A stretch of DNA of 64,000 nt, from positions 18,216,754 through 18,280,753 of the forward strand of contig OZ316896.1 in the NCBI GenBank assembly GCA_973895155.1, in the 5' to 3' direction. The stretch is from Marsupella aquatica (lineage: Eukaryota; Plantae; Marchantiophyta). This document shows, piece after piece, positions 19,081 through 45,117 of this stretch. The notes beneath the pieces are model-generated. The model made no database searches and had not been told where the DNA came from. It saw only the letters and a list, made by a program, of their open reading frames with translations. Each line of letters starts with the position of its first letter. Position 1 is the stretch's first letter. The translations under genes and the position numbers were made by a program.

Positions 19081-19530
19081 CATAAATGTACCCCCCAAAA
19101 TGAAAAGTGTTGTTTAACTGATCTCATATATAAGGGTTTGGGTATATTCATTCAAGTTCTATCAACAGAAAAGTATTATTTAATGGATCCCATAAGGGTT
19201 TGGGTATGTTCATTCAAGGTCTATCAAAGGAAAAGTGTTATTTAATGGATCCCATAAGGTTTTGGGTATGTTGATTCAAACCTGTCACCAGAAAAGTGTT
19301 ATTTAATGGATCCCATAAGGTTTTGGGTATGTTGATTCAAACCTGTCACCAGAAAAGTGTTATTTAATGGATCCCATAAGGTTTTGGGTATGTTGAGTCA
19401 AGGTCTGTCACCAGAAAAGTGTCATTTAATGGATCCCCTCAGGTTTTGGGTATGTTGATTCAAGGTCATCAACAGATCAATCATGGGGTCCATCAGTAAG
19501 TTTTTTTCATTTTGGGGGTTCAAGCAAATG
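19081..19530. mobile_element. MITE-like element with imperfect TIRs enclosing a ~61-bp tandem array (about 6 units)
   Basis: cccccaaaatgaaaa near 19092 is the reverse complement of ttttcattttggggg near 19504. Ends TA|CAT...ATG|TA. Internal unit aaaagtgttatttaatggatcccataagg(g/t)tttgggtatg. Confidence 0.55.
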
Positions 19531-22500: not shown

Positions 22501-24969
22501 CCATCCAGCCTTTCTCTTGAGAGAAGAAAGGTCCACGAGGATTTACTGCAACATATAAGAAGGGTGGGGAAAAGTGCCTTCTACATAGTTACAGTCTACT
22601 CTTCCTAAGTGCGCACTCCCAGGAAGCAGCCAGGGCCTTGCACTACATTATAAGCACAAATTTTTAGATTTTGCACTTGAATGTAGGTAAATAGCATGAT
22701 GATTCTTCTAGCCTTGCTGCTAAGTGCGTTGGCCTTGAGTCAGTCCTCTTCCCTCCCATCCCTTGTTCACATTCCAGAAGTAGCCATCTCATGTTCAGGT
22801 AGGTTCTCATGCCTTCCCCAAACCATTAAGTATACATCCTCAGATTGGACATCCTCATTGTAAACCCCTGCCAACTATCTCATAATTGCAACATAAACTA
22901 CACAAAATTGGTATGTGTAAGGGGTCCACGTAAGATTTTGTGCTCTAAACAATTGTAGAGGATTTTGCACTTACATATTTGTTGTTTGGTGGACCCGCTT
23001 TGCACCTATAAAAAAACGTGCAATAAAAAGTGCAAAATAGTCCGGGAAAAACTTGAAGAACTGGATGCCTTGCAACTAGCCAGGGTTTGCACTTAGAAAG
23101 AGCTGAATGTATGTCATTCTGATGAACCCTAGTCAACCCTTCGTGTAGCTGAGTGCCTGAGCGGCTTCCCTTGAACATCCATGCAGTGCCAACGTAACAT
23201 GTTTTGGCAATTTGAATATGTGATTCATGTTGATGGTTCTCGGGAAACTCATTTATTACAACCCTTTTGGTTCACACTTGGATGGTATCTTACTTGTTTA
23301 TCTCCACCCTTTTGGTTCACACTTGGATGGTATCTTACTTGTTTATCTCCATTTAGGTGATAAGAGAGTGATCTCCAATCTTTTAAAGTGTCAAGTCTTT
23401 TGTGTTCACAAGGCTTTGGCGAAGGCCATTTTGGGATGGGGTTTATACCAAAGCTGGTTAACTCACAAAAATTGAACTTGGAACCTCACTTGTCGCAATG
23501 AAGACTGCTATCCTTGGGCTAAGTATGCTTGCCACGACAATTATCATCAACTAAACTTCTTATGTGGATCCAAGCACCATTGGTAGCCATTTGACCAGGA
23601 CACTCAAGCTAGTTTCTATAAAGAAGAGTAGCAATGTAATAAATACTACATGTTCAGGATGTTTAAATAAGTTCATGGCTTTACTATACAACTTAGGTGG
23701 GTTCTGTCCTATCCAAGAATTGTGCTCATCCTTGTATACACTGTCTGTCCATTTCTTGGCTGTAGAACTCTTTTCCATTCCTTCCTGCTCATGCAAAGTT
23801 CATGACTGTCTTGAATCCGAATTCTGTTTCAGATGCCCACTCCACATTTGTCGTTCCTGGTTTTGTTCCAGTCGAGTGAAGCAGTGTGCTCAATCCTGGC
23901 GAAGGATGTTGGAGGACTATAATAAGGTTTGAAAGCTCGCTGACTGTTCGTGACATTGTATTTCGTCCTTTCTCTGATTCGTGAAGGTTGAGCAAGCTCA
24001 CTAGTTGTTTGGAGAATCAATAGAAATCAATGGAGACAAAAGAGAATGACATCTGAAATGCAAATGTGATGGACTGATCATTCAGTGCCGCTTGAGATTC
24101 TTTGGGAAATGGAATTGGCTCCACAATGTCTGGATGAATAATCTGGATAACCCTAAACTTGATCCGAACATTAATACGTGCCTCACTCTCGAGCTTCTCA
24201 AGCTCACGCACTGGTGATGGATTGTCTTGTTCTCTTTCAATGATACGCTGAGCGACTATTGTAAGCTTCTTTAACTTCATTGAGTCAAACATCGATGTTG
24301 TGGAACGTAGTTGTCTGCCTTACATTGTTCCCAAATCTTATAAATTTCCACCAGTTTCGTACAGATGAATTCTTTGTCTGATACGCCTGCTTAAGTATGG
24401 GACGTACATTTTCGGCAACGTTGTTATGTCCATCTTTGGAGCCACCAAAACCCTAGTGACGTCACTTTCCGCTGTCTCTACTTGTAGGTCATGAGTTGTA
24501 GTCTTTGCTGTATAAATAGCAACGTAGAGCCCAAAGTCTTTGTGTGAGGTGCTACTTGTTAAAAAAATACAGCATGCTCGAAGGTTCAAAGTAAAGGAAT
24601 AACCCTAAAGCGTCGGACAGAAATGTCCCGTCCATCGATGGAATAGGTACGAGACAATGTATTTCCAAATAACTTAAGAGTGACTAACTTTGTCAAGTGC
24701 AACGTTGAAGTAGGTTCAGTGAATGAAGAATAGGTGTGGCTTCGCGAATTATGGCATAGGTTTAGATCTTTGATTTCATGTTTCAATTCTGAATTGGAGG
24801 AAATAACCTGAGACAACATTTATTGCCCTTCTACATCCAATTGTCTCGTGGCAATTCTCATTGGATTGTGGGTTGATCTCTCCTGTTCGTTTTGGAGGAA
24901 TTCTAGGTGAACAGATCCGCTTGATTGGGTGGAGGGAGAGAAAGAGTCAGAGAGGGTTTAGGGGATATC

Positions 24970-26429
24970 ATGGCAGACTCCGCCAGCAGAGGGAACGGAG
25001 GGATGGTGGAAGAGATCTCCAAGTTGAGCGTGGAGCAGCTCGGAGCGGTGAAGGAGCAGGTGGACGCGGAGCTGAACATGCTGCAGAACAGCGTTACCAG
25101 CATTCGTACAGCGGCCAACCGCTTCGAGATGGCAGCCAATGCGCTGCGCAACCTCTGCTTGCAAAAGGAGGGTGAGCTTGCGTCTCTTCCCTGTCTCTCT
25201 ATCTGCTCTCTTCTCCTCCTCTTCAGGGCGTTGGCTGGTCAGCAACAGGGTTGAAAGAAATGCACGTACATCATGAAGCGGCTTCTCGACCTACTAATGA
25301 ACGATGACTATGAAAAGGAGATGAAGCAATCTTTCTGTGCTTGGTTTCCGGTCCTTGGTGAGGTTTCTTAGGTCAGAAAATAAGCAATGCACATTCATCT
25401 CAGCCTCAAGGGTTTGTTAATGGTAGATAAATCTTTCAGTTCTTTGACTTTCAGAGCTTGGGTTGAATTCTTAGGTCAGAAAATGCTCGTGCCTTTGACG
25501 GCATCGCTCTATGTGCCCGGTCAGTTGGAGAATGTGGACAGAGTGCTCGTGGACGTCGGCACTGGCTACTACATTGAGGCACGCACCTAAACCCTATACA
25601 TGCACCCATAATAAGGGCTTATGATTCTTGTTGTTAGGGTTCTTGAATGTTACGATAGTTTCCTTTCTTGTGGCGTAGTAGCTCGAAATTTGGAGCGGCG
25701 AATTATGTCCACGGGTTTAAGGGAATGGATATGCTCTCATGTCAACCATGATCTTGGACTTGAGAATTAGCTCAACTTGCATGGGCACAGAGCAGTGAGC
25801 ATAGGCCACAGGTTCCTCGTTTACTGGCTCACGTCCTACACGAATTGAGACACACTTTCATGGAATCTGTTTGTCTTGAAGGTCAATACCTTCAACTGAA
25901 TATAATGTTCATTAACAGATTACTGCTCCGCTCACTGCAAAAGTTTTCTATACGATTTGTTTCGTTCGGTGTGTCTTGGCTTTTGTCTCTGCACTATGAA
26001 CGTTTGGTGTAGGGTCTGACGGGCATCGTTTCTGGTTTTGATTGTCTCACAGAAAACTGTACCAGAAGGGTCAGATTACTGTGATCGTAAAATCAAGTTT
26101 TTGAAGGCGAACCATGACAAGTTGGTGGAGGTAATTGGCCGTCAACAAAAGCATGTTAAGTAGGAATGATTTAAAATTCGGGAGGGCTCTAGAGCAGATC
26201 AGAATTTCTGGCTGTATTTTCGTGACATGAGTCTACCGCTGGACCTACTTGTGGCAGAACTCTTAGATGTTTAGATCAAATTGCTTGGATATTGAGGACC
26301 GAACATGATCAACAAGCGCCTGCTCGTTTCTGACAGGTAGCAAATGACAAGAGGAACACCGCAGAGCAGGTGTCATTGGTATTGAATGCAAAGATGAGGG
26401 CACAAATGGCTAGTACCACCTCGGAGTAG
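24970..26429 (+). CDS. PFD5: Prefoldin subunit 5 (alpha-type), 158 aa; exons 24970-25171, 25475-25578, 26053-26130, 26337-26429
   Basis: The spliced product contains [42 protein letters not shown]. Intron phases are consistent and intron 2 is GC-AG. Confidence 0.93.
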
Positions 26430-26711
26430 CAAAGTCAAGGTGGGTCTTTATTGGTCTTTTATCTATATCAACTTGGATTTTCAGTTCTAACCTCAAATTT
26501 AATCCATATCACCAGAAGATATTCAATGGGGTCTTTGGAGCAGTATACCCGTTCCACTAAATTTTGTTCTTGCTAGGATTTGTTTCGTAGGTCATTCATT
26601 ACAATGGGTTCACTGCAGGCAGTCCCGCATTTAATTAAAAAGCTCATATCACGACAATAAGAACTTGTCATGCAAATGATGTAGCTTTCCAACGGTTGTC
26701 ACAATGCTCTT

Positions 26712-28740
26712 TCAAATTGTCAGATGATTGGCACGTTCCTGTTGCAGAAAATCGGCGATTATCTGCTGCTGTTTTTCCTGGCAGGACCGAGTGAATGAAT
26801 AAATGATCGAGTTAAGAAAACTTCTCAGGAGAACAACACTGTTGCTATTGGATCCAGGGCTTGATGGCAACAAGTCGTCCAGAAATTGACATAATATTAT
26901 GTAGTAGTCTCGTGCAGGAAAAATGGAAACGACTCCATCGTTGATCATGGCGAAAGAGTGGAGGGATGCAGAAGCAAATCTGGATGGTCGCTGGACCCTC
27001 GAAGTTCAAAGAACTAGCAGTGTCGGCTGGAGATAGAATGGAGATGCCAACAGGTCTGGCCGAACAGCAGAGCAATTGAAGTCAACTCTTACACTCTATA
27101 CACTCCAGAAGTAGCTCCCGGCCCATTGGTGGCCATTTCCGTCAACCTCACCTTTGCTGAGCATCTGCATTGCATGGCCGTAGTCAGCAAGGATCGTTGA
27201 TGTACCCAACCTGTTGAAGGAAGGCCTTGTCTTGACTTCAGTAGGTTGAAGATGTCTGACTCGTACACAATTATTTCATCAGAATCATGGATTATTTTAT
27301 CTGTTCATGGTTTCTTGCTAACTTGTTGTTCAGTAAAATCCTTATCGCTGGATCGATTCCACGATTACTCAAGACCACGCATACTATTGATCTGAGCGTT
27401 TGCCTGTTCCATCTTGCGAAATGCTTGCCTCTGTCAAGACATTGTAGCATAATCAAAGAGGTCGGAAGTGACGAAACAATACAGAGGCCATAATACTCTT
27501 TGCCAGTGCAGTCAAGAGCAGGAGGTAATTGATGCACTAGAACTAACATTTTGTAACCCATCTAGTCCGGATCTCTACATAGAAGCGCTTCGGGAGAACT
27601 GGATTCAATAGAATTATCCACTATGTCAAAGTCGCCATTGAAAAGGGTTAGCACGAAATTGAAGAATTTCTGTATAGCCCTTATCCAAAGGATAAATTCC
27701 CTATCTATCTACTGTACTGCCTTAGTGAGATCGCTTTCAAATGTTGGAGGATGTGCTGTCAAACCATGCAATTGCCATTTCTTGGCACTGATTCTTATGG
27801 AATTGAAGGCCAACCAGAAGTCCAGCCAAATCCCATCTCAGGATACCGCAAAGCAACAGCAAGCACGAAGGCGATGTGGGCACCCTGTGTGCAAGCACCT
27901 TTGTTTTGTACTGCTCTCGGTGTTCTCCAGTGGACAGAAAGTAAGAAGGTTCGAAATGAGCGAAGAAGGGATAGAATGTCGCAAAAATAGACCTGATACC
28001 GCTCATACAATAAGTGCTCTGGCCAGCCATAAGGGTACCAGGTTCGTAAGTGAGACCTTTGGTCCCAGCTCAATCTTCGGCTTTATACAGGTGAGCTTGG
28101 TGGGTGAGTGGAATTGTGTCCTACTTCTCTGCCATACGTCACTCAGCTGCTGAAGACGAGGATTAGGAAAAACTGACCGCTGGTGAGTTCATAGAAGCTC
28201 GAAACGCCAGGTTCACTGAAGCACACAGTCGATTACCTCGTCTGCCTACCATCTCTCCATTATGTGGCCGTTGGTAGATTGATCGCTTTCCCAGTAGAGA
28301 TTAACCAAATTCCTCGGTCATACCCAGCACGTTGAATCTTCGAGCTCATAACTCAATTCACTTAGTATTCCACGCCCACACCATGATGCTAGAGATTCTA
28401 GTGGTACAACATTAAAAAGCATTCAGCCGTCTAGTACTAGTTTCAGCTTTTCGCGAGAGCCAACTTTCGATCTTTGCTGAAATTGTGTATACCTGCGCGT
28501 CTGGATCAGGCTAACGAAGCCGGACTCGTCGAAAAGATTCAACAGAACCACAATCTCTTCAGATCAACGTAGATTATCTGACTGGGAGCGTTGCCGCCTC
28601 ATCCGCCAGCATGACTCGAATGTCATACTCATGGAAGCGAATGACATAGTCAATATGGAGGTAAATCGTCTGGCTTGGCCCGGACCCCGACAGTCGAGGC
28701 TAGCCACTTTCTTCAAGAACAACATGAGCTCATGAGATAC
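26712..28740 (-). pseudogene. Possible decayed multi-exon gene of unknown family
   Basis: Protein-like minus-strand segments (IYLHIDYVIRFHEYDIRVMLADE; EEIVVLLNLFDESGFVSLIQ; RTWYPYGWPEHLLYERYQ; AFVLAVALRYP/GIWLDFW; DKIIHDSDEIIVYESDIFNLL) are separated by GT..AG-like gaps and broken by stops and frameshifts. Confidence 0.35.
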
Positions 28741-29707
28741 TGTAAAGCCTTCAGCTCATGAGATACCTTCAGCTCATGAGATACTGTAAAACCTTCAGCT
28801 CATGGTAAATTTGGATAATGGAGGGTCGCATAATAGGTGCAAACAAGCTCATTGGCGGTCTCCAGCGAGGGCTCCAAGATGAAGCAGGGAAACAGTTGGA
28901 TTCGAACGATGGTTTTACATTAACGAGTACAAAGAATTCCATTCCAAGAAACAGAACAGCTACTAACAGCAATGCTGACTCAAATACGTTGAGAGCAAGA
29001 GAGAGAGAAAGAGAAAGCTACTGCACTGTAGTTTAAGGAAGCCATGATATATATGTGCTTGAAGCTCGTACGAGAAATACGCTTGGAGACTTGATGAATT
29101 GCTGCCATTGCATCATTGACAGAGAGATAGAAAGAGGGGGGAATATTCAATTTAGCGTGACAAACATTCCGCTGGCTGCAGTCACATGACGTGGGGTGGA
29201 ATTTCGCATGCTAATGCAGCAGGGAAGAATTGTCGGGTAAGCTCCACTTCCCGTTGTCAACAGCATTCAGCACTACATCCTAGGAGCAAGCTCTTCACTA
29301 TCTATAAAATCAGGGCTAGGCGCAGTGACCTCAGTCGCTATCATGTCACAGTTAGGAAGGTGCCTAGCCAGCCCCATGGACCCATTATATCCGTCGTTGG
29401 TGAGAAGATATCTAGAATTGCTGCTACAAACAACACTTCTTTATCTCTCTTGAAGCAAAAACCGGGCAGAGATGCGTGAATTTTGCTGCATGTAATCTGC
29501 TCTACAATACCAAACACCCCAGAAATCTTGCATTGGAGTATCATGATCGCTACAAGCTTTAAACCACGCTCAGCAGAAGATCAGCTGAAAAAAATTAAAC
29601 CTGTGCAACTCCCGCTACGTCGCTAATGAGATATTGTTGACCGAGAATAGTATCTACGTCTGTCCTCGGATCCAATCCACCATTTCATTAAAAAGTACAT
29701 CCATCGC

Positions 29708-30349
29708 TTACCATCTCCAGACCATCCCCAAGCGCTGAAAAAAGCTAAACAAACTGCCCTTCGGTACATACCCCGCAAACTTCGCCTGCCACCAGGCCGC
29801 AAAACTCCCCCCAATGGGGCCCAACTCCCCAAATCCCAGCGCCTCTACCGCCCACGGCGCCAAGCAGACCAACAAGCCCAATGTAAGAAGTGTCACATAC
29901 ACCGGATTCTCCTTCGCAAAACCGACCACTTCCTGCGCCATTTGTGTCAACACAGATGCCACCTTGTGGTATGCATCAGCCATCGCGCTGCCCATGGGCG
30001 CCCCCGCCTCGAGCAAATTCTCGAGGGCGGTCTCAAGGCCGGAGAAGACTGCGAGGGCAAAGCTTTCTATCCAGCCATTTGCGCTGAACTCTTGGTCGTT
30101 GTCAATCTTGGGGACGAGAGACTGGAGTTGAGACGCGAGCTGGGGGTCGCCATCGGAGCTGGTTAGCAGAGTTTCGAGGACGGCCTCGGCAATCTTGCGA
30201 GTTTTCTGGTCGATAGCGTTGGGCCGCTGAGCGATGTATTCGAGTGAGGCGTTGCGTGAGTCGACGTTGCATAATTTGCGGTCGAGGGTGGTGCTCGGCT
30301 CGTTTGGGCCGACGAAGCGGGTAAGGATGGAGTTGAAGAAGGTAAACAT
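29708..30349 (-). CDS. Fungal-type hypothetical membrane protein (213 aa) with IFI27/ISG12-like C-terminal motif; candidate horizontal transfer
   Basis: Intact GC-rich ORF with ATG in a CACAATG context. The C-terminus LGFGELGPIGGSFAAWWQAKFAGYVPKGSLFSFFQRLGM matches my recollection of an ascomycete family. An upstream branch point, pyrimidine tract and AG suggest a 5'-UTR intron. Confidence 0.8.
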   Translation of the reverse strand: MFTFFNSILTRFVGPNEPSTTLDRKLCNVDSRNASLEYIAQRPNAIDQKTRKIAEAVLETLLTSSDGDPQLASQLQSLVPKIDNDQEFSANGWIESFALAVFSGLETALENLLEAGAPMGSAMADAYHKVASVLTQMAQEVVGFAKENPVYVTLLTLGLLVCLAPWAVEALGFGELGPIGGSFAAWWQAKFAGYVPKGSLFSFFQRLGMVWRW

Positions 30350-30459
30350 TGTGTTGTGGTTTTGCTTGTTCTTCGATGTGGACACAGAGCTTCTGTCAAT
30401 CAGAAAGAAGAGAAGAAGAATTGATTAGTAACGATGAGCGAGACGATGAGGAAGTATCG

Positions 30460-30850
30460 GATGCTTTCAATTCAAGTGCCTTCAATGCTCCAACCTTTAA
30501 TCACAGTGAGAATGTATACATTTCAAGATCACTCCTCATGATTGTATTGACGAGATGCAGAGGTAGTGGATGCTTTCAAATGCCTTGAACGCTCGAACTT
30601 TCATCACAGTGGGAATGTATTCATTTCAAGAGCACTACTCAGGAGTGTATTGAAGAGATGAGGAGGTAGTGGATGCTTTCAAATGCCTTGAATGCTCGAA
30701 CCTTTCTTCACAGTGAGAATATATACATTTCAAGATCATTTCTCAGGCGTGAATTGACCTCTAGTACGTCAAAGTACAACTTAAACGAGAATGCTCGAAC
30801 TTTTCCTCACAGTGAGAATGTATACATTTCAAGATCATCCCTCAGGGCTG
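30460..30850. repeat. ~103-bp degenerate tandem repeat (3-4 units) upstream of the fungal-type gene
   Basis: Recurrent gctcgaac..tcacagtg(a/g)gaat(g/a)tat..atttcaaga. Confidence 0.8.
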
Positions 30851-33429
30851 GCGTGAATGACCTCAAGTACATCATATTACAAATTCAAGACCGTTCAGCC
30901 GTTTCGTTTCGTTTCGTTGAAGGATACATTATGATCGTGAACATTATGATACGTTTCACGATCATTCCTCTGAGGAGTTCGAAGTCTCTGCAAGGTTTCA
31001 ATTGCTTCGACAGACTGTTCTTTCGATCAAGAAGGAGTTTGAACGTGGGCGAATTGTGTTCGACTATCATATCATGCAGATCAAGATTGGAGCCATGCGG
31101 AGAGCTAGCTCAAGGACAGTTCAAAGCATTTCATCTAATTCCCGAGTTTTAGCTATCGCCTTTTAAATACAATGCCATTAAAGATGTTCATATTTACAGC
31201 ACCTAACTTCTTATTGTATATACAATTATGCCACACTTTTAGTATAGGGTTCTTCTGGTTGTGTTGGTGAACTTGTCATTCATATAAGTCTGTGTTGGTG
31301 AACTTGTCATTCATATAAGTCCCTGACATATGTGTAAATACAAAAAAATGTGTGACATTAATATCTTTAGTGGCAAAGTACTAAAAAGATGTTTGAGCTA
31401 TACATGCTTTTTAGTTTGCAGTCTTTGGTTCTTTTCAATTCAATTCAGTATAGCTATAGCTGTAGTTATTTTCAATTGTTGGATTCTCTCAAGCTTTTTG
31501 GCTTACTTAGCTTTTTGGTCTTCTTGGGTTTTTCCTTTGTTTTATCCCCTTTGTTATTAGTAAGTCTCAAAACTGCTTGGGTTTTGTTCTTGTTTTCTCC
31601 CCCCTTATTATTACTGAGTTTCCATTTTTTCAGTCAGCCTCTGCGAGAAATATAGGGGTCTACAACTCTGACAAAAACCTAACTTGCAGGCAAACTGAAT
31701 CTATGGGTTCTTTTGGGTTTGGGACTTGGCTTGCAAAGGGTTCGACATGCTCCTTCGGGTCAATCATTTGGGCACCATTGATTCTTGAATGGCGCTGTAG
31801 CATATTGTGTGGACCATTTTTTTTGCATACAATGGTGCACTGAACACCCGAGTTGTTGAAGGTCACATATTGCAGGAACCTTTTCTTCGTGACCCAGCCC
31901 TGCAGCAGCTGCAGTTTGGTCACTTGAAACCGGGAATGAGCTGGTCTGAGATGCCCTATCAGTTGTCCACCCATTTGCTTCCAATTTTCTCACCCTTACC
32001 TGGTCTCCTCTCTGTCTCCTCCTGCTTTTTGCTCCTTGGTATTGTTAGACATAATTACTCTAATCCAGTAGAATTTTTGCACATTCCGGACACAGGGTTA
32101 TAAAGTAACTACAACCCCTGCCCGGACATCGGTTTCCTTCATAATTTTTGGCTGGATATCTGACCTTAAGTTTTGAGCACAAGATTATGAGATTACAGGG
32201 AGTAGAAGTTTCACCAACCGGATAACCTTTGTTATGTACAAAAGTTACAAATGCCAGTCACCATGCCAATTACATTTTTTGCAAGTGATAAGTTAGAGGA
32301 TGGACTTATTTGCCTCCATTAAGAAAAGCATTGTGTGAAAAAGTGAACTCTCCTTGTTTGTTCATTAAACATTATGCTCACTAGTATGAATGCTTGAGTT
32401 TTGCTCACAAATAGATGGTGAATAATATATAGCCATGCCCCTTTCCAGCTCCATCCCCAACTATAGCCAAGGCCCCAAATGCACAGTCTAGAGACTTCAT
32501 TCTAAATAGTAAGCTCTTATTCTAGCTTTTGATTACACTTTAGTAGAGAGATAACCCTCTCACTTGTTAGTAAACGACTTGAGTTCCCAATTTAGTTAGT
32601 TTGGTCTTACTAGAGTTAGTTAACCCTTGATTACATTAGTATAAACTTTGCTTAAATTAGGCCCACACATCTCAGCCCCCCTTGAGGGTATAGGTTGGAA
32701 GGAGAACATTCTCTCTCATTTTTCACATGGATCCTTCAGGAGTTTCTCCACTTGTGGTGTCTTGTTGGTGTAGCGTGTGATCAAGTGTCTGTTGATCTCA
32801 TGTTTCTGCATTTGTTGTCTAGTTTGAGCTGACTATTTCTTACATCACTATGGTAAACTCTATGTATGAATCTTCTTAAGTAGAGAGGCTTAAGAGAAGA
32901 TTTTAAAAAGCATTTTGCCAATATTTTCATTGAAGGTTATCATCACTAGCCTAAATGCTAGAGCTTTGCAAGGATATTTGTCATGGGTTGACAATTCTCC
33001 TCAAATCTAGGGAATTCTAATGGTGACGAAGTGATGACAGAGAATATGATGGATTAAAAACATTTCCAGCATCTTCTCCGTTTGAGAAGGTGACATTAGC
33101 TGCCTGGTAATATTGGGGGCCCATTCCTTCTTTTTGTAGATTAAATCTGGAGCAATCTGGAGGCATGACTTTGTGGCAACTCACTTGCGTAGAGACTTGA
33201 TAGGTCTTGGGTTCAACTGATGTGGGCTGACTGGGCTGACTCTTCCTTTTCTTTGAGATTTCACAGATTTAAGAAAAAAAAATTTAAAAAATCTGGAGCA
33301 TACAATGAGTCAAAATGGCTGCACTTGACTTTACAAGCACGCCCATTCAAGTATAGAGTGTGGGGGCCCATTGTTTCTTCCCATAGATTCAAGCTCCAGC
33401 ATACAATGATTAGAAATGGTTATAGTTGA

Positions 33430-33682
33430 CTTTACAAGAACAGCCCCTTCAAATATGGAGTCTACAAATCCTGCAAGAACTGCCCATTCAAATTATGTAC
33501 TCTACTATTACAAGAACAACCCATTCAAATATGGAGTCTACCATTCCTACCAGAACGGCCCATCAAATTATGTAGTCTACTACTACAAGAAGAACTCATT
33601 CAAATATGGAGTCTACCAATCCTACAAGAACGGCCCATTCAAAGTATCCTACATGATGGCTGGATTTGACTTTACAAGAACT
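33430..33682. repeat. ~35-40-bp degenerate tandem repeat
   Basis: tacaagaac..ccattcaaat(a/t)atg..gtctac repeated about 6 times. Confidence 0.75.
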
Positions 33683-33927
33683 AGTTGTCTATTAGTGTAT
33701 GGAGTGCTCTAGTTTAGAATTTTAGACCACCTCCAAAGGTAGTCCAAACATTCGAAACATTGCTTCCTTCATTCAAGGGATTTGCCTTTATTAAACTCCA
33801 TTTCAAAAGTTTTTTGGTATGAAGTCCATCTTTAGTACAAAGTGGTGGGCTTCAATTTGCTTTGGTGGAAAAAGTCATTCCCCTAGGCCAACTTGCATGT
33901 AGCTGCCCTCAACATTGCAGCCCTCAT

Positions 33928-34366
33928 TGTTGAGCATAGACGACGATCGCAACGGCAAGCCCATGAACCATCCAACGCACAATAGTCGACACAAGAGATA
34001 CGTGGTTCACCTCCTTGAGGCTATGTCCACGGGAACACACAAGAGAGCTTTACTGAACTCTAAGCCCGTCGGCTATACCGAGTCTCCACAGTGTAAGCTC
34101 TCCCTATCTCTCAAGTGGCTCCATAACAATGAGTCTTGGTTCTCCCTCTCCAAGCACACATGCCTCTTATGATATAGTGTGCAACTTAGTTGTACCTAAC
34201 CACATAGTTGTACCTAATCACGTAGTTGTACCTAACCACATAGTTGTACCTAATCACGTAGTTGTACCTAACCACATAGTTGTACCTAATCACGTAGTTG
34301 TACCAACCCACGTTGTTGTACCAACCACGTCATACCTAACCTAGACGTAAGAGTAAATACCCAACA
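33928..34366 (-). repeat. 3' LTR of the Copia element (439 bp)
   Basis: tgttgag...cccaaca, adjacent to the PPT and a direct repeat of 44679-45117. Confidence 0.96.
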
Positions 34367-34380
34367 ATCTTCCCCTTGAC
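34367..34380 (-). promoter_or_regulatory. Polypurine tract
   Basis: Minus strand GTCAAGGGGAAGAT immediately precedes the 3' LTR. Confidence 0.88.
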
Positions 34381-34556
34381 TCTGGTCTAGGGGAGAATAA
34401 TACTGCCAATGTATATGATCCCTCAGCGGGAAGTTCTGGACAAAAACCAAACCGGTTTCCCTCTCTAACTAGAGCAAACCAGAACTAAGCCGTAGCCTAA
34501 TACATAGGAATGAGGAAGAGCATATATCAGTAATTACAATGAATGTTAAGAAAACT

Positions 34557-36597
34557 CTACTTGTGATGCAATTGCAAAACCTGCAATACGTCACGGTGTC
34601 TAGAGAAACTCTCCAAAGGAATCACTTTGGTAAATGCGTCAGCCGGGTTGAGTTTACCATCAATCTTGACTAGCTCAAACAAATTATCAGACACAGCCTG
34701 CCTGATAAAATGGTACCTAACGTCAATGTGCTTCACTCTGCTGTCCATCACCTGGTTCACAGCAAGGTGGAGCGCACTTTGACTATCACAATGGAGCTTC
34801 ACATTCCCCTGTGGCAATCCCATTTCAGTGATAAGTCTATTCAACCAAATCGCTTCCTTTGTTGCTTCCGCAGCTGCAACATACTCCGCTTCTGTAGTAG
34901 ACTGAGCAATACACTTCTGCAAAGTAGACCTCCAACTTATGCATCCACCGCCAAGTGTGAACACGTATCCTGTTGTTGATCTCTTTCGGTCCAAATCTTG
35001 TCCATAGTCAGAATCAACATAGCCAATCAATGATTTAGCATTCTTTGCATTCGCATCAAATAAAAGACCATGATCCACGGTACCCTTCAAGTACCTGATA
35101 ATCCACTTCACTGCTTCCCAATGTACCTTCCCTGGATTCGACATGTACCTGCTCACCTTGCCCATAGCCATGGCAAGATCAGGTCTAGTGCAAGTCATCA
35201 AATACATGAGACTCCCCACTGCCTTGTCATACGGAACCTTTGACATCAACCCCTTCTCTGTGTCATCCGTATGACAGAATGCTGATGATAACTTGAAGTG
35301 TGGAGCCAACGGGGTACTTACTGGTTTGCTATTCCCCATGTTGAACCTTGCAATTACCTTCCTCGCATAACTGCTCTGCGTCAACCATAGCTTGCCAGCC
35401 TCCAAGTCCCTAGTGATCTCCATACCCAAAATCCTCTTAGCTGGCCCTAAGTCCTTCATCTTAAACTCTGCACTAAGCAGTGCCTTGAGCTTAACAATCT
35501 CAGACCTATCCTTGGCTGCAATTAGCATATCATCCACATAAAGTACTAAAACAATGAACCCAAAGACAACATTATTTACCGGTTTCAAATACACACAAGG
35601 GTCAAATACACTTCTGTGAAAACCTTGTGACCGAATCCAATCGTCAAACCGCTTGTTCCACTGTCTTGGTGACTGCTTCAACCCATACAAGGATTTCAGC
35701 AATCTGCAAACCAATTCCTCCTGTCCTCTCTTCACAAAACCTAGTGGTTGTCTCATGAAGATCACCTCTTCCAATGTGCCATAGAGGAAAGCTGTGACAA
35801 CATCCATCTGATCTAGCAGCAGACCAAACATTACAACAAGTACACACAATAGTCGTATTGTAGAGTACTTAGCAACTGGTGAGAAGACCTCATTGTAATC
35901 CACACCTTTCTCTTGTGTGAATCCCTTTGCTATCAATCTAGCCTTGTAGACCTTCGATCCACCTCCTATAGAATTAACTTTTAACTTGTAAATCCACTTG
36001 CTGTCCACCACTTGCTGACCCTTAGGCAGCTTAACAAGCTCCCAAGTTTTGTTGTCCTTTAGTGACTGCATCTTCGTTTGCATTGCTGCAGTCCACTTCT
36101 GCTTCTCCTTTGAAGCACTTGCCTCATGAAATGAAGAAGGTTCCCCTTCTTCCAAAATTAACGCATCACCCTCATCATCAGTTGTAAAATCATCCTCTTG
36201 CAGTTGAGATGAATCAACCCACTGTCCATACCTTGGTGGAGCGCGTACAGTGCGACCAGATGTTCTTCTAGCCGATGACTCCGGTTGATCTGCGTGTGCT
36301 GGTACAATTTGAAGCTCAACAGCATCCACTTGCTGCTCACCAGCATCAACAAACTCCTCTGGTTCCTCTGGCACAGGAACCAGCTCCATAATTGGAGCAA
36401 CTCCTTCTCTCCGGTCATGCACCTCATAACCAATCTCCCCCTCAACGAGATCCGGGATAGGAGATTTTCCTTTGTCAGTACGGGAGACCTGAGTATTCTC
36501 CCCCTCCTTCAATAATCTGGATTCATTGAAGGAAACATCCCTACTGACAACGAGCTTACAGGCAATAGGATCCCATAGCCTATAGGCTTTCACACCA
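34557..36597 (-). CDS. pol: Copia pol, 3' part: integrase C-terminus, reverse transcriptase and RNase H
   Basis: KAYRLWD, YKARLIAKGFTQ, QMDVVTAFL, KSLYGLKQSPRQW, YVDDML, STTEAEY, KHIDVRYHFIR, ADAFTK. Joins the 5' part in frame once the insert is removed. Confidence 0.96.
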
Positions 36598-39500
36598 TGT
36601 GGTGCGTCCCATGGCTCCCTAAACCCAAGAAACCCCCCAGCTCAAGCCGATTCCCGCAAGTTTCGTGCTTGGCGAGGCTGTTTCCGCGGCTTAGCGGCAT
36701 GGGACGCTGCTAACCTTCTACTACTACTATTAACATTTTACACACATATACTGGACAGATCCTTCATCGGGTCATGAGATACGTAGCCGGCCTACTGTAG
36801 GCCTTCCCCTGTCTTCCCCTGTCTTCCCCTCCGTCTTGTTAGGTATGTTTGGATTCCGCCGCCGGAATGATCCCCAATAGGCTTGGTTAAGCCGCTAAGA
36901 CCTCTCTCAGCTCGACACATCCAACTCTCACACCCCTGCTTACTTTCCTTCCTTCTGCTGATGTGGGCACTCTTCACACAAGTTAATGCGACACACAAAT
37001 AGCAAAATGACTCATTCTGACTGAGTCATACCATGCACTTGCCATACAAACAGTACATCTCATACACAAGTTCTGCGAACTAAGCCGTGAGGCCAACTCT
37101 ATTCAGCTCTTAGGCATGAGGAAACATGAATATACACAAGGGTCACTGTATGACTAACCGAGAGCTTCTCGTACTACTTGATCCCAGCCCGGCTGGTGCA
37201 AACTAAAAACTTGCTAAAGAAGAGGCCCTGAGCTCCCCGCTGCCCAGGTACTTATCCTGGTAGTGGATCCGCCATTCTTTGCATCGTAAGCCTAATCTAC
37301 TTAACAGTAATCTACTTGCCCGAATCTACCTATGTACAGCAAGGCAGGAGCACAAGTGTTGCTCCTACCAGTGGGACCGCAATCCCACTAAGCTAAGTGT
37401 CAGGGCCGCTCCTGGTTCTGATCCTAATCCTAAACGTGGAGATCCGTGCCCGCCCTGCCCACTCACGCCTCCTCCCTCCACGTCCGCCCTCCCTAAAAGG
37501 AACGGCGCCCTTGCACCGTCACGACACCGGTGGTGGATCCTCAATGGACGCCCCCAACACTTCCTCCTCAGCCACTGCCGTTGGCCCGCCTACTGACCGA
37601 TTACCTGCCCTTGACCGAGTCAACTCTCCATCGGCCTGACTGGGTCCACCTTCGGCTTCAGCCTCGACACCGGCCTCGGCAATACCCACGGTTTCGGCTT
37701 CAGCCACCCCCACGGCTTCGGCTTCCCCTTCCCCTAGGGTAGTTGGATCCTTAGCCGTGACCCTGTCTGGGGTCGGTGCTGGGTCTACCTCCTTGATCAC
37801 CACGGCCTGTGAAGTCGTATTACTCCTTGACCCTGAAGGTTTCCGCTTCTTCTTCGTTGGTGGCTCGGCAGCTGGTCCCTTCCCCTTCCCACTTACCTCC
37901 GGCACTGGTGCAGGTGGCGCGGCTTGTCCTTCGGCAATTACCACCCCTGGTAACTGGTTTGTCCCAACGGGAGATGGACCTGCTGCAGCTAAGCATTTAA
38001 ATACTGCGGCTTGTTTCTTCAGCCGCTCTGTTTGGTTGTCGGCCCGCCGCTGTAGGTTCTCCATCTTCCTCGTGATTTCCTCCAACTCCTCTTGGGTTTC
38101 ATCCAGGTCCTTACGTGCCCCCTCCAGCTCGTTTTTGGCCTCCTCCTGCTCCCTGTGGGCTTCCTCCAATTCCTTCTTCAAGGTAGCCCTCTCCTCCTGG
38201 GTTGCTCTTAGCTCCTTGTCGAGCTCTGCAATGATGACAGACTCCATCTGGTTCATCTTGGCGTAAGTCTGTTCGAGCATCTCGTCCTTCTCCCTTAGGT
38301 CGGCCTTGAAGCTGGCCGTCAGGGACGCAAGCTCCTGCTGCAGTGCCATAATCCCTTGATAGGATTTCCCTAACTCGACCTCCTTCTGCTCAAGGGCTCC
38401 GCGGATTTTCTCGAGCTCCCCTTTCAACGCCCATTCCTTTCTTTGGGTCTCCGCCATGGCCCGGCTGTTGGCTGTTATGTGGGCCTCCTCTGTATTCTTT
38501 AGCTCTTGCTTCCACTTTTCCCTTTCTTTGATCGTGTCGGCCAACTCTTCCTGCGTCTGAGTCAGTTTATCCTTGATATTCTGATTATCAGCCTGCGCGG
38601 CGTCCAACTGCCCCTGCATGATGTTCAGCTCATGTCGTTTAATCCGCAGTTCATCTTGGGCTTTCTTGGCCGCCCTTAGATCTTCAATCTCGGCTTCCAT
38701 CCTCCTAAGCCGCCGAATGACCTCGTCCTTCTTGCTTCTCTCTAAAGCCACCGCTTCTTCTAATTGGTGCTTCTCCAACTGCTCCCTATGGAAAAAGGGT
38801 CCTACCTCCAACTCCTCTCCAAAGATGCCGAGCGCAAGTTCCCCACACATCTCACCATACTCCATGGCTCTATTCTTAGCGTAGGTGGAGTAAGTAGAAG
38901 TGATCGGCATCGCCCATCGTGGCCTCTGCTCCCAAGCCGTCCTGCGGATCTCTTCAATCGTGGCTAGAGGTTTGCTTCCTTTTTCGGCTAGCCGCCTGAT
39001 GTCCTCCGGCCAATCTCCTCCTCGTAAATCCTTTTCCTTAGCCAGGGCGGCCTCTTCCTCTTGCTTGATTCGCTCCTGAAATTCCTGCACCATCTGTTTT
39101 ATGCCGTCGAAGCTCGGGGGAGCAACATCTGGTGGGGGAGACTCAGGGCTACTCTGCTGGTTGGGGTCCCCTCGCACTACCCTTGGAAGTGTGGGGACAA
39201 ACCGGCCACAGGTCCTTACTCCTGGAACGTAATGGTCCGACCCATAGCCGGAATTATCATGGCTGCAGTCCTCCACTGCCTCCTCTACCTCTTGGATTTC
39301 CGGCTTCTCCCTCTCCTCTTCCTCGGTAGGAGCTTCAGGCAATTCTGCCTCAGATTCGGAGCTTGAGGTTCCCACGTACATTCGAACACCTGGCTTGGAT
39401 TCCGGCCTGATTCTCTCCTTGTCTCCAGCAAAGGGGTTTTCTCTTGTGAGCCGGTGTAGGCCTACCTCTGTAGTAGTGTCCTGCATTGTTGCCGTTGCCG

Positions 39501-41248
39501 TTGCCGTTGTTGTTGTTGTTGTTGCCGATGCCGATTTCTTTTCTTTCTCCAGTAGTTTCAGCAGACTCTGCATGCCTGGTTGCTGCATCGGCAAGTCTTC
39601 CTTCTTGGGCCTAAACACCTGCTCGATCGTAGGACTAACAGGTGGTTGAGGCTTCTCAGCCAACGGCCTCGGCGTTGGAGCTTCCTCGGGTGCCCTTACC
39701 TGCAGGGGAAGTACCGGGGCAAAAGTCTAACCTCTGGCATACCGGCACAACAGCGGCATGTGATAGCCAAGCCGCGACACGCTCCCCATGCCGATTACCT
39801 GCTGCTCCTCCTTTAAGATCTTCTTCAATTGGTTGAGGAGGTACCCGTTGTAGTCCCGGCTTGGGTCTGGCCTTTCTGCCAGATAGACCTGTGCTTTGCC
39901 GATCTCTGCCCTCGGCAAGTTACAATGCATGGTCACCCGCAAGAAGTCGATCATCTCTCCTATGTGCGGGTTGGTGCAGGTGTTCCGGAAGAAGCCATTC
40001 TTCGTTGATGGCCCGGGGAACAACCGGAACTCCTTGTCAGGCAAGGTCTTCCTGGTATCAACTTTGGTCTTATTGCCCATCGGCAAGCCAAACACTTCGG
40101 CAATCACCTTGGGAGTAAGATAGAAATCCTTCCCATATATCCTCGTGCAATTGGTCTCGGGTTCCCATGACCCCACGAATTCTAATAGGTCTGACTCCGG
40201 TACCTCCGGCTTCAGCCATGGTAATCTTACAAAGGCCTCCAAGCCGGATCCGGCCATGAAGCCTTGGTACTTCTTGGTCTGCATGGCCGTAAAGCATGCA
40301 TCCTCCTCCCGTGCAAAATGTAGTTGCACCTCCACCGGTAGGGTTGCCGCCCAGCCCTTCCAGGTGTCATCCCTGGTTGGAATGGCCTTGATGGGATCGA
40401 CCTCCTCCTCTTCGGCTTCTCCCTGCCTCCTGCTCTGCTGCTCGGCTGGCTTCTTTGGTGCCGCCGACCTCATTCTTTTTGCCGGGGTGGCTTCATCGTT
40501 GACGGCTCCCTTCCTCTTCATCTCTGCTGCCGTGGAGGTCTCTCCTAGCACCGTTGCCCGGGTCCACCTTTCCGTGCTACCCTTTAATTCCCAGTGTATG
40601 TCGTTGCAGTTCTTGATGGCCTCTCGGATGCCGACGACGCTGTCTTTGCAAAACAGAAGATCGTCGAGTTGATTGGAAGTAGGCGTCCACAGGAACTCGT
40701 CCTTGATGAGTTCGCCTCCTAAGAAAGCCGTCTTCTGCAGCTCCCACAATCGAGCGAGCTCCTGCCGTTCTCGAGCTGCCCTTTCTGACTCCTCGTCCTC
40801 GTAAGTCTTGATGTACTCAGTTGCCCGTTCGAACAGGCATCCCCAGAAATGTGCCGCTTGATTGACGTTGCTCATACCCTCCTTAGGTTGATCGTCGGTA
40901 TCTACTCTCTCCCCGAGTGCTTGCCTAAGCAGCTGACAGTAGTTGGCCTCCCGTAGTCGTCTGCCTAGTTCGTGCTCGCAAATGAGCCACCATCTCCTGC
41001 AAGCGCTCCTTACCCCTCTCCTCTGCCGGTCCTTCTTCCCGTTGATCCTTCCTAGCCGCCGACGCTTAACGCGCCCTAACCCTAATCGGGTTTTCACCCT
41101 CAGCCTTACCTCCGGCCTCTGCCCGGGTTCCATGGTTGCCCCTAATTGTTTATATTTTCCTTGTTTTGTCACTATACTAAGGTGTTCCTAGGGTGCCTTC
41201 CTGCTTTACCCACTTAACCGGCCGAGTGATTCCTGTCTAGGCATCACA
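36598..41248 (-). mobile_element. Nested 4651-bp element with TG...CA termini and 5-bp TSD; probable giant protein-coding solo LTR
   Basis: Ends TGTGGTGC...GCATCACA (7/8 inverted match), CACCA TSD at 36593-36597 and 41249-41253. Removing it restores GYQSGVKAY. No terminal direct repeat, gag or pol was seen. Confidence 0.9.
37519..41133 (-). CDS. Accessory protein of the nested element; predicted exons 41133-39799 and 39699-37519 (about 1171 aa)
   Basis: The 481-aa and 714-aa ORFs share a frame and are separated by one TAG (39727-39729) inside a 99-nt GT..AG interval. Contains GLEAFVRLPW..LTPKVIAEVFGLP, a long coiled coil, and basic motifs PAKRMR and PTKKKRKP. Confidence 0.7.
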
Positions 41249-42485
41249 CACCACTCTGGTACCCAAGAAAAACACATTTCTTGGAGGTAGGATCCAACTT
41301 GGTCCTATTCTGCTTCGGTGTGAGAGCATATGCATCACTTCCAAAAACTACCAAGCCATGATAGTCTGCTTGCCGCTTATAGCGCATCTCAAACGGCGTT
41401 TTGAAATTGATAGCACTAGAAGGAGAAAGATTTACCAAATAAGCTGCGGTATTGACAGCTTCTGCCCAAAATTCTTGTGGTAAACCTGATTGGCTCAACA
41501 TACTCCGTGACCGCTCCAACAGTGTCCGATTGAGCCTCTCAGCGACACCATTCTGCTGCGGAGTATAAACTGTGGTGAGATGGCGAGTTATCCCCTGTTC
41601 TGAACAGTACTCTTCAAATTCCATTGAAGTGTACTCCCCGCCGTTGTCTGACCTCAGACTCTTCACCCTTGTATCCAAACACTTGATCGTGTTTCCAGTC
41701 TGATTCTCCACCTGGGCCTTCCACTTCTTAAAAATGGACAAGACATCAGACTTATGCGTCATGAAATAAATCCACACAAATCTTGAGTAATCATCAATAA
41801 ATGATACATAGTACAACTTTCCAGAGTGTGAGGGAGTCGGGGATGGACCCCACACGTCACTATGTATGTACTCAAGAACCACTTTGGAACGATGAGTTCC
41901 AACACCAAAAGCACGACGATGCTGCTTTCCAAGAATGCAATGCTCACAAAACTCTAATTTACAAGATTGCAAATCAGAAATGAGTCCATTCTTCCGTAAG
42001 ATAGCCAAACCCTTCTTACTCATGTGGCCTAGCCGTGAATGCCACAGTTGAGTCATCTCCTCGTGAGACTTGGTTACATTGGCCTCTCCACATACAATAT
42101 TGTCCTGTAACACATACAAATTCTTTTGTCTACTCCCCTTCAAAATCACTGTCTCTCCCGACCTGACTTGAAGTTCACCATCAATAACGCTCCAATGATG
42201 ACCATTTGAATCCAACACACCGAGTGAAATCAGATTCTTACGCATGCCAGGTACATACCTGACTCCGGACACTGTGCGCACAGCGCCATCAAACATTTGA
42301 ATCTTCACAGACCCAATTCCCTCAATTTGACAGGAGTGATCATTTCCCATCAGAACTGAACCGTTTGAAATAGAGTAAGAACTGAAAAACTCACGAATGT
42401 AACAAATATGAAAAGAGCAAGCACAATCAAGAATCCACACATCATCTGCTCTCCTAGATGACGTGCACAGGGGATACCCCCGGCT
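41249..42485 (-). CDS. pol: Copia pol, 5' part: protease, GAG-pre-integrase region and integrase core
   Basis: WILDCACSFHIC, WHSRLGH..CEHC, HSDVWGP, RSDNGGEY, PQQNGVAER, KKCVFLGY. Confidence 0.95.
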
Positions 42486-43526
42486 TCATAAAACATACTC
42501 ATCATTGAGTAAATCAACTTCTCCATCAGCCCTAGCCACATTTGCCAATGAAGTTTCCGCTGCCTTTCCCTTACAGTCTCGCTTGAAGTGTCCAACTTGG
42601 TTGCACTTCCAACATGTCACCTGCCTCCTCTGAGGGGATTTATCCTTGGACTTAGATCTGGATTTAGATCTAAACTAGGTTCTACGGTCCCCAGTTGGTC
42701 GCTGCATACCCCTCCCACGGTTAACATTGAGGGCAGCACCAGATGATGAAGGCTGTGATGTGATGTGCATCTTCTGCTGAAGATCATCACTAAGCAGAGA
42801 ACTTACCACGTCATTATATGAAATGGTATCCCTATCACGATGCAACAACACTCGTGATAGGGACTGGTAAGATGGAGGCAATGAACTAAGAAGCTGCAGA
42901 GCCTTCGTCTCATCATTCAAAGTCTCCCCAAGGTTTTCCAAGTCAACGACCATGTCGTTGAAAGCATCCACATGGTCTTGCAACTTTGTACCGGATTCCT
43001 TCATCCTGAAACTCATGAGTTTGTAGGAAGTGTAGAGCCGGTTTGACAACTCCTTGCGGTGATACTTGCTCTGCAATTCTGCAAACAAGGACATGCAATC
43101 CTTATGTGCACCCAACTGCTTGATGATGGGAGGCATGAGATAGAGTGTAACACACCACACTCCCTGCTCCTGCATGCGGTCCCATTGTTTCTCATCAACA
43201 TCGTCTTCACGAGGGCTCAGCAGTTGGCCCATCCCTGACGCATAGAGCACTCCCTTCACCTGCTTCTCCCATAGCAAGTAGTCAGAGCGCCCATCATACT
43301 TTGTCACTTCATACTTGGGTCCCCCAAGCTTGAAAGTCCCCATCTTCTTCTTTGGCACTACCGTGAGCTCCGGTAGTAGTACTGCTTCCTCCACCACACG
43401 CCGCACCGATGATGGTATCGGTGTCACATGCTCTTCCTCCTGCTCCTCTCTCTGCCCCTGAAACCGCCGCGATGATCCTCGTGCTTCAAGTTCCACGTCT
43501 TTGAAAAATTCCTCCGAATCACTCAT
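42486..43526 (-). CDS. gag: Copia gag with an internal TAG at 42675-42677 before the zinc knuckle and a TGA at 42486-42488 in frame with pol
   Basis: YDGRSDYLLW and LLSSLPPSY. After the TAG the frame continues to CWKCNQVGHFKRDC and ends NDEYVL*. Confidence 0.9.
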
Positions 43527-44664
43527 ATGAGAAAATCACAAAAATTGTTGTTTTTCACAACTTCTCAAAAAACTCGAAACTCAACACCGCTGCGTAGCCC
43601 ACAAAGCTAGGAGTCCAATAGTGAAAACCGAAATCAAAATTGAAATTTGACGGAAAAGTTATTCAAATTTCGGTCGAGGTGGGTAAAACCTTGGGAAACT
43701 CCCCCGTTTTGACCACCTCAGGGAATAACCAAAATACCAAGTACAACCCGTTGTCGAAATTACGATGTGATTGGTGCGCCGCATTGCCAACTTCAATGGC
43801 TACGACCTCGCCAAAAAATAACCAAAAAAGTTACCGTTCGGCGGATGAAATCTTTGTCGGACGGTCAAAAAATAGCTCTCTGGTTTTTTGGAATATTCTA
43901 TGACCCTTGTACAGGCCCTGTGGGAATTTTGGAAGAACAATCGAGGGGCTGACACGTGTCCTCAAACCCCCAAAACCCCCTACCACCCTTCGTCGTCGAA
44001 ATCTGGTCGCGCGCGCAGAAAATACACACGGTAGAATGTACCCCTCGATACCAAACGCAAGATATCTCACTCGGGTTTTGACGAAATCAAGATCTGATTT
44101 CAGATTTGGAAACTAGACTCCGAGGCGGTGAAGATCGATATAAGAAGCACCCAAAAAGAGGAAAGAACAAGGGAGAAAAAAATTGGTAAAGATGACAGAT
44201 TTCTCTCAATTGCCATAGCCAATTTCGAATCAGTTTTTCAAAGAGAAAAAATGGTACCTTGTCAACAACGAATGTTGATCAATTGCACTTGGTGCCGTCA
44301 CCAAGTCCAACAAGGTAATTGATTTTGCTTAGCCTTCCTCTTTGCATCAAAGAGCCAATCCCGGACTCAAAACAATCGTCTTGCCTCAATCTCTCCGTTG
44401 AGTCAAAACACTTGACGCTTCTCCCTCCGAGTCGATTGCCAACTTTCTTCACAAAATCCAGAATGACGAAAACTTAGATCTCTCTGCACCACGAGCTCCG
44501 TTCAGCGATTTCTTCACACCGTTAGAAAGCTCTTGCCCTGATCTATCCGTTGAGCCCATAAACTCCAAGTTCCATGCGACGGAACTCCGGGAAATCCACC
44601 GATACTCAACGCTGGAAAAACCGTAATGAAATCCCGTCACGAACACACGTCACCTCCCAAGCAT

Positions 44665-44676
44665 GCTCTGATACCA
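44665..44676 (-). promoter_or_regulatory. Primer-binding site complementary to initiator tRNA-Met
   Basis: Minus strand TGGTATCAGAGC, 2 nt from the 5' LTR. Confidence 0.95.
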
Positions 44677-44678
44677 AT

Positions 44679-45117
44679 TGTTGAGCATAGACGACGATCG
44701 CAACGGCAAGCCCATGAACCATCCAACGCACAATAGTCGACACAAGAGATACGTGGTTCACCTCCTTGAGGCTATGTCCACGGGAACACACAAGAGAGCT
44801 TTACTGAACTCTAAGCCCGTCGGCTATACCGAGTCTCCACAGTGTAAGCTCTCCCTATCTCTCAAGTGGCTCCATAACAATGAGTCTTGGTTCTCCCTCT
44901 CCAAGCACACATGCCTCTTATGATATAGTGTGCAACTTAGTTGTACCTAACCACATAGTTGTACCTAATCACGTAGTTGTACCTAACCACATAGTTGTAC
45001 CTAATCACGTAGTTGTACCTAACCACATAGTTGTACCTAATCACGTAGTTGTACCAACCCACGTTGTTGTACCAACCACGTCATACCTAACCTAGACGTA
45101 AGAGTAAATACCCAATA
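44679..45117 (-). repeat. 5' LTR of the Copia element (439 bp)
   Basis: Appears identical to 33928-34366 except C>T at 45116. Confidence 0.96.

Follow-up and report, generated by a model that had tools for sequence, protein, structure and literature searches.

Animal IFI6 and IFI27 are small proteins that comprise the whole Ifi-6-16 domain and carry a second hydrophobic helix; plants, to our knowledge, are without interferon. Double-stranded RNA is said to induce genes of the 6-16 family in Neurospora, a result reportedly due to Choudhary et al. in 2007 to which we give no weight, and Parker and Porter are said to have published a paper on the ISG12 family in 2004. Passages of PMC5850085 and PMC9144789 associate the animal members with virus restriction and with cell death, and describe the mechanism as unclear.

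According to Table S8 of PMC13069868 the Ifi-6-16 domain occurs in 95 of 115 bryophyte genomes (83%) and in 4 of 300 vascular-plant genomes (1%), while Table S4 of the same work scores it as an ancestral domain that was lost at N10, at N2 and in hornworts. Dataset S3 of PMC12890914 contains seven adjacent Marchantia polymorpha genes, Mp4g05230-05290, of which four are up at 2 and 3 dpi with Phytophthora palmivora, one is up with Colletotrichum nymphaeae, and five are accessory. In the Marchantia expression data 1,266 genes rise upon Colletotrichum infection, so the induction of the array is unspecific. Three files of the Marchantia pangenome supplements contain no row for the seven genes. The difference in prevalence (83% vs 1%) and the Marchantia array are not discussed in the main-text passages of these sources, and together they are possibly a bigger lead than the single gene that is our subject here. 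Fungal genes that were transferred to bryophytes include FB lectin, YANB, EUPF, microbial terpene synthases and NAS, as named in parts of PMC12513842 and PMC12454661.

The gene lies in a 64,000-nucleotide stretch of contig OZ316896.1 of the liverwort Marsupella aquatica, which was analysed as a whole and is referred to as the window. A first-pass annotation had described an intact, GC-rich ORF of 213 amino acids, and the frame at 29708..30349 on the minus strand does encode 213 residues plus a stop and contains every motif quoted from it. The coding sequence is intronless and, from its translation, Pfam match and relatives, specifies a long fungal-type Ifi-6-16 protein. Its GC content is 0.57, compared with 0.44 for the window, and its GC3 is 0.715, compared with 0.38-0.66 in four single-exon host ORFs. 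The gene is single-copy within the window; a second match near 48397 (E 0.035) was rejected as a 23-residue frame without the motif.

Upstream of the gene an acceptor-like sequence at 30393..30430 (minus strand), made up of a CTAAT branch motif at 30428-30424, a pyrimidine tract and CAG, is likely to be the 3′ end of a 5′-UTR intron, as had been predicted. The acceptor at 30393 is 43 nt upstream of the ATG, and the stretch between acceptor and start is free of ATG. A strict rule, drawn up after the site was known and missing every acceptor of the neighboring PFD5 gene, leaves it as one of two sites in 128,000 nt; at the loosest setting it is one of 62. The TATA-like TATTTAAA reported at 31165-31173 is present about 4 nt away, at 31162..31169 (read from 31169 to 31162 on the minus strand); as a promoter it is a weak candidate, because TATTTAAA occurs five times and TATAWAW 50 times in the window. 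A local tandem repeat with a unit of ~103 bp in 3-4 copies (30445..30857, no strand assigned) falls within the putative UTR intron, on the upstream side of the acceptor, and has a read depth of 28-32 vs 21 in sequencing run X1.

The only Pfam family found in the protein is PF06140 (Ifi-6-16), at residues 156-210 (29720..29884, minus strand), where the score of 37.8 bits exceeds the gathering cut-off (29.1) and the E value is 1.9e-9. The match, which bears out the Ifi-6-16 signature pointed out in the first-pass annotation, runs from position 5 to 63 of the profile and covers 59 of its 84 positions. Near-invariant residues of a 149-row alignment are concentrated in 148-211, and G172, F173, G177 and Q205 are invariant across all rows. 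A single transmembrane helix is predicted at codons 150-168 (29846..29902, minus strand; Kyte-Doolittle 2.11), and one transmembrane segment is found in 145 of the 149 aligned proteins. There is no second hydrophobic helix, the best 19-residue hydropathy past residue 178 being 0.55, and the C-terminal helix is amphipathic (residues 199-211, moment 0.48). Outside the Pfam domain, four helices predicted at codons 48-140 (29930..30208, minus strand) are common to the fungal proteins; residues 45-147 of the liverwort copies score 62-66 bits against a fungi-only profile (66 for this gene), with reversed controls at no more than 5.8. An amphipathic N-terminal helix predicted at codons 2-13 (30311..30346, minus strand; hydrophobic moment 0.52, pLDDT <50) has a weak likeness to fungal N-termini, at 9 bits here and 17 bits in the Calypogeia copies when scored with a profile built from fungi only.

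An AlphaFold2 model made from the 149 sequences (pLDDT 76, pTM 0.75, residues 1-29 unreliable) is all-helical. Helices at 48-63, 68-78, 92-115 and 121-140 are followed in the C-terminal part by a hydrophobic stretch at 151-170, a hairpin at GFGELGP, and helices at 183-191 and 199-206. Searched as a whole, the model matched nothing in Foldseek at E ≤ 0.001 and, in VIA, none of 48,161 chains at Z ≥ 5 (best Z 4.8); neither result shows a new fold. The four-helix executioners HeLo, MLKL and RPW8 gave no Pfam match and were absent from the listed whole-protein fold matches. A trimer prediction scored 0.00, with the fold of the monomer itself uncertain, and NCBIfam and PADLOC returned nothing meaningful for the four proteins searched.

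Given a fungal origin, we lean slightly towards a role in defence or cell death through a membrane mechanism. Defence is the best guess because animal members have antiviral and cell-death links and because members in Marchantia are induced. In such a mechanism helix 150-168 would hold the protein in the membrane of an organelle or of the ER, with the conserved Gly/Trp-rich motif and the amphipathic C-terminal helix at the membrane surface; the four-helix region would lie on the cytosolic side and serve in regulation or binding. When induced by contact with microbes, the protein would then disturb the membrane or tune cell death, as has been reported for animal IFI6/IFI27. The explanation as a whole, in which a gene of fungal origin was acquired and its single-pass membrane product likely acts as an infection-induced effector of defence or cell death, we hold to have an even chance of being right. 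Points that weigh against it include the incomplete Pfam match, the missing second hydrophobic helix and the lack of synteny with PFD5 in C. fissa.

The strongest competitor, less probable than a defence role but to be taken seriously, keeps the fungal origin and gives the protein a non-immune membrane job in fungi and liverworts, at the ER, at lipid bodies or in general stress, with the IFI27 motif merely a shared membrane module. Fungal neighborhoods were scanned at loci of at least 6 kb, using 108 of the 132 long frames listed there and leaving out most frames over the gene itself. The neighbors are mostly housekeeping or metabolic genes, which favors a non-immune job. HET domains were found near two related loci and there was one NACHT-like gene, and the 108 flanking frames contained no Mx, Dicer or Argonaute and no steady immune context. 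A non-immune job is also favored by a gene that is single-copy in the window, strongly constrained and not diversifying, by good conservation of the family across Pezizomycotina and Agaricomycetes, and by a literature search, largely outside subscription journals, that found no functional paper on a fungal or plant member. Against it, family members in Marchantia, shrimp and mammals respond to infection, and in Amanita, Lactarius and Hebeloma accession numbers that lie close together on the same contig point to local duplication, which is, as we understand it, common among defence genes. A far broader proposal would make IFI27-like proteins cross-kingdom immune effectors of animals, fungi and bryophytes that were lost from vascular plants, with symbiont-housing leafy liverworts capturing the Dikarya long form as an mRNA copy and employing it to damage membranes or kill cells and so contain hyphae, invading or symbiotic; we think this improbable in its entirety.

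Relatives were collected in a search with the single protein (204 matches among 706 candidates) and in a search with a profile of four liverwort-clade proteins (479 matches among 6,645), both of which covered proteins from about 117 aa upwards and are described here by the best 120 matches of each. The top matches are a Logan protein at 84%, a liverwort protein by tree position only, and proteins of Calypogeia fissa at 62-66%; past these all named rows are fungal, in the best 120 of 204 as in the best 120 of 479. The liverwort-only profile matched fungi at E 1e-36 to 1e-47 (best 120 of 479). Marchantia, Riccia, Ceratodon and Diphasiastrum, although present in the database, have no protein in the best 120 of either search, and orthologues across green algae and land plants that follow the species tree, which would speak against a transfer, did not appear among the matches listed. 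With HMMER, 573 matches were obtained from 1.84 billion representatives, and of 19 that were looked up all 11 carrying organism names are fungi. ESM Atlas neighbors scoring 0.90-0.95 all belong to fungal-dominated clusters, and no relative was found in viral and prokaryotic contigs.

The four liverwort-clade proteins group together at 100/100 in an unrooted tree of 36 rows, with no supported fungal sister, and without an outgroup their position shifts between tree runs. They fall near Fomes, Auricularia and Neofusicoccum in the quick version of a 76-row mixture-model tree (81), in an open set with the same three genera and Eurotiales in another run (80), and in a set with ectomycorrhizal basidiomycetes in FastTree (92). 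AU tests rejected monophyly of the ascomycetes (p 0.019) and of the basidiomycetes (p 0.003); a clade of liverworts plus ectomycorrhizal basidiomycetes was not rejected (p-AU 0.38), and neither was a species-tree-like split with Fomes and Auricularia disregarded (p-AU 0.38). We do not count the rejections as proof of transfer, because the tree suggests that they stem from Fomes and Auricularia standing with Neofusicoccum. The unrooted tree thus indicates a single origin in liverworts, and neither donor nor direction. The first-pass annotation had expected nesting within the ascomycetes, which was not borne out: the top named fungi are Agaricomycetes (Amanita, Lactarius), no sister is supported, and the clade with ectomycorrhizal basidiomycetes is not rejected.

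Several features of the fungal relatives were observed in passing. The basidiomycetes stand in two separate places among the ascomycetes, one an ectomycorrhizal-rich clade and the other Fomes and Auricularia with Neofusicoccum, which may be due to fungus-to-fungus transfers or to hidden paralogy. A predicted protein of Colletotrichum destructivum (P0012) has a second Ifi-6-16 unit after the long form, and two metagenome loci (L059 and L060) have a second partial copy nearby, hinting at tandem clusters in fungi.

The gene is of fungal type and sits in a plant chromosome; it was very probably acquired by transfer from a Dikarya fungus, as judged from sequence comparisons. The direction is drawn from distribution, the matches being fungal, and from distance. 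Over residues 45-213 the median identity between liverworts and fungi is 0.49-0.52, compared with 0.50-0.51 among fungi, and the highest fungal identity among the matches listed is ~56%. The window and Calypogeia copies have drifted to 0.67-0.70 over the same residues, and 50% identity across the plant-fungus split would therefore be unlikely. The acquisition likely took place once, before the split of the host lineage from Calypogeia. Dikarya symbionts are frequent in leafy liverworts, and Calypogeia is named as a host of ascomycete symbionts in a passage of PMC7062687.

The route was considered from an intron survey of 80 related metagenome loci, some of them near-duplicates, which are fungal as judged by similarity and by HET and fungal kinase neighbors. 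A phase-1 intron of 46-263 nt directly after the GP.. codons is present in 63 of the 80; it is absent in two, which are on short contigs and may be transcripts, and the other 15 were not parsed. The corresponding site here, codon 181 (29808..29809, minus strand), is contiguous. Because most related loci retain the intron that this gene lacks, transfer by way of a spliced mRNA is possible; a later loss of the intron, or a donor that had none, would fit as well. A copy of a spliced mRNA may have been transferred, in which case the 5′-UTR intron would have been recruited or retained separately. Skew at fourfold sites drops along the gene from C-rich (+0.71) to G-rich (-0.52). The skew also falls in 53 of 56 related loci, from a median of +0.55 to one of 0.0, and in none of four host ORFs does it change by more than 0.25; we treat this likeness as weak support because there were only four control ORFs.

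A second competitor, which we consider unlikely, makes the gene an orthologue of the Marchantia array within a bryophyte-wide Ifi-6-16 family, inherited vertically or gained from a fungus much earlier, in a moss/liverwort ancestor. It draws on how widespread the domain is among bryophytes (95 of 115 genomes), on its scoring in PMC13069868, in the tables cited, as ancestral with three losses, and also on a tree without an outgroup or a supported fungal sister and on relatives described by the best 120 of 204 and of 479. Against this, the liverwort-only profile had no Marchantia, Riccia or moss protein in its best 120 of 479, and the sole Streptophyta-led Atlas cluster, with a 67-aa representative scoring 0.81 (a lead only), hints at short native members. 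Bryophytes likely have a short native Ifi-6-16 form, and this gene is likely a second, long, fungal form. The domain is present in 95 of 115 bryophyte genomes and is therefore not new there, and the proposal of a fungus-to-plant transfer made in the first-pass annotation survives as a likely transfer of a fungal-type gene now in a plant chromosome, with only the long architecture looking acquired. A 70-aa Atlas cluster, mostly of Nucleocytoviricota, scored 0.78 against the C-terminal domain, below the reliable range, and is a lead only.

The locus is anchored in the liverwort genome by a plant prefoldin subunit 5 (PFD5) gene with four exons at ~24970..26430 on the plus strand, whose first exon is 85% identical to that of Calypogeia fissa and 69-72% identical to those of Marchantia and Riccia. 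These identities mark the host as most likely a leafy liverwort (Jungermanniales) distinct from C. fissa. The reported distance of 3.3 kb between the ORF and PFD5 is correct, and the two are tail to tail. The second PFD5 intron (25579) appears to start with GC instead of GT. Reads came from six runs; X6, like part of X5, amounted to a small share and was excluded. In X1, which may be the sample that yielded the window itself, one unitig of 7,209 nt spans 24500-30530, comprising PFD5 and the whole ORF, at a depth of 21 with 0 differences. In runs X3 and X4, which belong to a separate study, both genes are covered to a like depth, and a second haplotype, several percent different, is continuous through the gene and its flanks. 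Continuity and even coverage, which had been proposed as a check, were found over 24500-30530, with the ORF linked to a spliced plant gene, and no breaks of the kind expected of a chimeric contig appeared. The C. fissa orthologues are two copies on contigs of 8.8 Mb and 15.3 Mb; synteny of the gene with PFD5 was not found in that species, where they lie on different contigs with distant accessions. It is very improbable indeed that a piece of an endophyte genome was joined to the plant contig, as the GC-rich, fungal-like composition, the frequent Dikarya symbionts and a possible identity of X1 with the source sample might suggest, given the unitig without differences, the like depth and second haplotype in X3 and X4, the large C. 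fissa contigs, and fungal proteins that reach no more than ~56% identity over residues 45-213 among the matches listed.

The 24 ORF variants listed from X3 and X4 pooled, 15 synonymous and nine non-synonymous, give a pN/pS of 0.18 (binomial p 5e-5) and show purifying selection. No stop variant is among those listed. The only listed ORF indel is an in-frame 18-bp deletion in the second haplotype (30026..30043, minus strand, at about codons 103-108), and indels of 1 bp and 3 bp fall outside the ORF. Over 24500-34400 the two haplotypes of X3 have near-equal depth, which suggests an allopolyploid, a hybrid or a mixed sample, and C. fissa has two copies each of the Ifi-6-16 gene and of PFD5.

Among other ORFs of the window Pfam recognised F-box/Kelch, VTT, lipase-3 and MORN families, as well as a copia element. 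The Ty1/copia element at 33926-45115, 3.6 kb upstream of the gene, is very young, with terminal repeats identical over 439 nt and a summed depth over the left repeat that is thousands of times the single-copy level. Its pol is interrupted at ~36.6-41.2 kb by GC-rich DNA, with an SH3 domain split either side, and for the two long minus-strand ORFs of this insert, at 37519-39726 and 39727-41187, Pfam gave no clear match. Intergenic local tandem arrays with units of 40-140 bp occur at 7149-7796, 19130-19476, 33433-33647 and 57869-58280.

Fungus-to-bryophyte transfer is an established class, and another case is unsurprising because such transfers are known by the hundreds; a passage of PMC12513842 gives 1,809 transferred families from all donors. 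The interest here is in the family, which is neglected and linked to immunity. The main text of PMC12513842, as distinct from its transfer lists (Supplementary Data 8-11), does not mention the Ifi-6-16 family, and no paper on a transferred liverwort Ifi-6-16 gene was found in literature lying mostly outside subscription journals. A passage of PMC5850085 still describes the molecular action of IFI6/IFI27 as unclear. A fungal version that selection maintains in leafy liverworts lets native and imported forms be compared in a natural setting, and the question of whether IFI27 is an ancient, interferon-independent immune effector becomes testable in Marchantia and fungi.

Compared with animal IFI6/IFI27 (ISG12, FAM14), the liverwort protein shares PF06140 above the cut-off and the LGF..G...GS.AA..Q motif after a hydrophobic helix. 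It differs in having an extra helical region of ~100 aa, a match to the first 63 profile positions only and one predicted transmembrane helix, and in its length of 213 aa, compared with ~13 kDa for the shrimp member in a passage of PMC9144789. Human IFI27L1 (PDB 2LOQ) is a weak profile match (E 0.41), and 2LOQ is absent from the listed fold matches. The Marchantia array Mp4g05230-Mp4g05290 has the same Pfam domain in another liverwort, in seven tandem genes rather than the single copy of the window, and is probably another, shorter subfamily, judging by its absence among the matches listed. Like other genes transferred to bryophytes, this one is short, intron-poor and near LTR elements, and such genes are often linked to defence (parts of PMC12513842 and PMC12454661); unlike those enzymes and lectins, it would encode a membrane protein from an immune family of animal type, in addition to the members of that family that the plant apparently already possesses. 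The protein also resembles the long-form Ifi-6-16 proteins found in Pezizomycotina and Agaricomycetes, some of which carry the UniRef label 'lincomycin-condensing protein lmbA', taken here as a propagated mislabel. These share the architecture over nearly the whole length at 40-56% identity, with a helical region upstream of the domain containing W93, A98 and an H/N-P149 motif, one transmembrane helix followed by an amphipathic aromatic tail, and the same pattern of codon skew. The liverwort gene departs from most of them in lacking the codon-181 intron and in short insertions around residues 81-91 and 110-113, and an early cysteine found in 112 of 131 rows is missing from its first 20 residues but is kept in Calypogeia.
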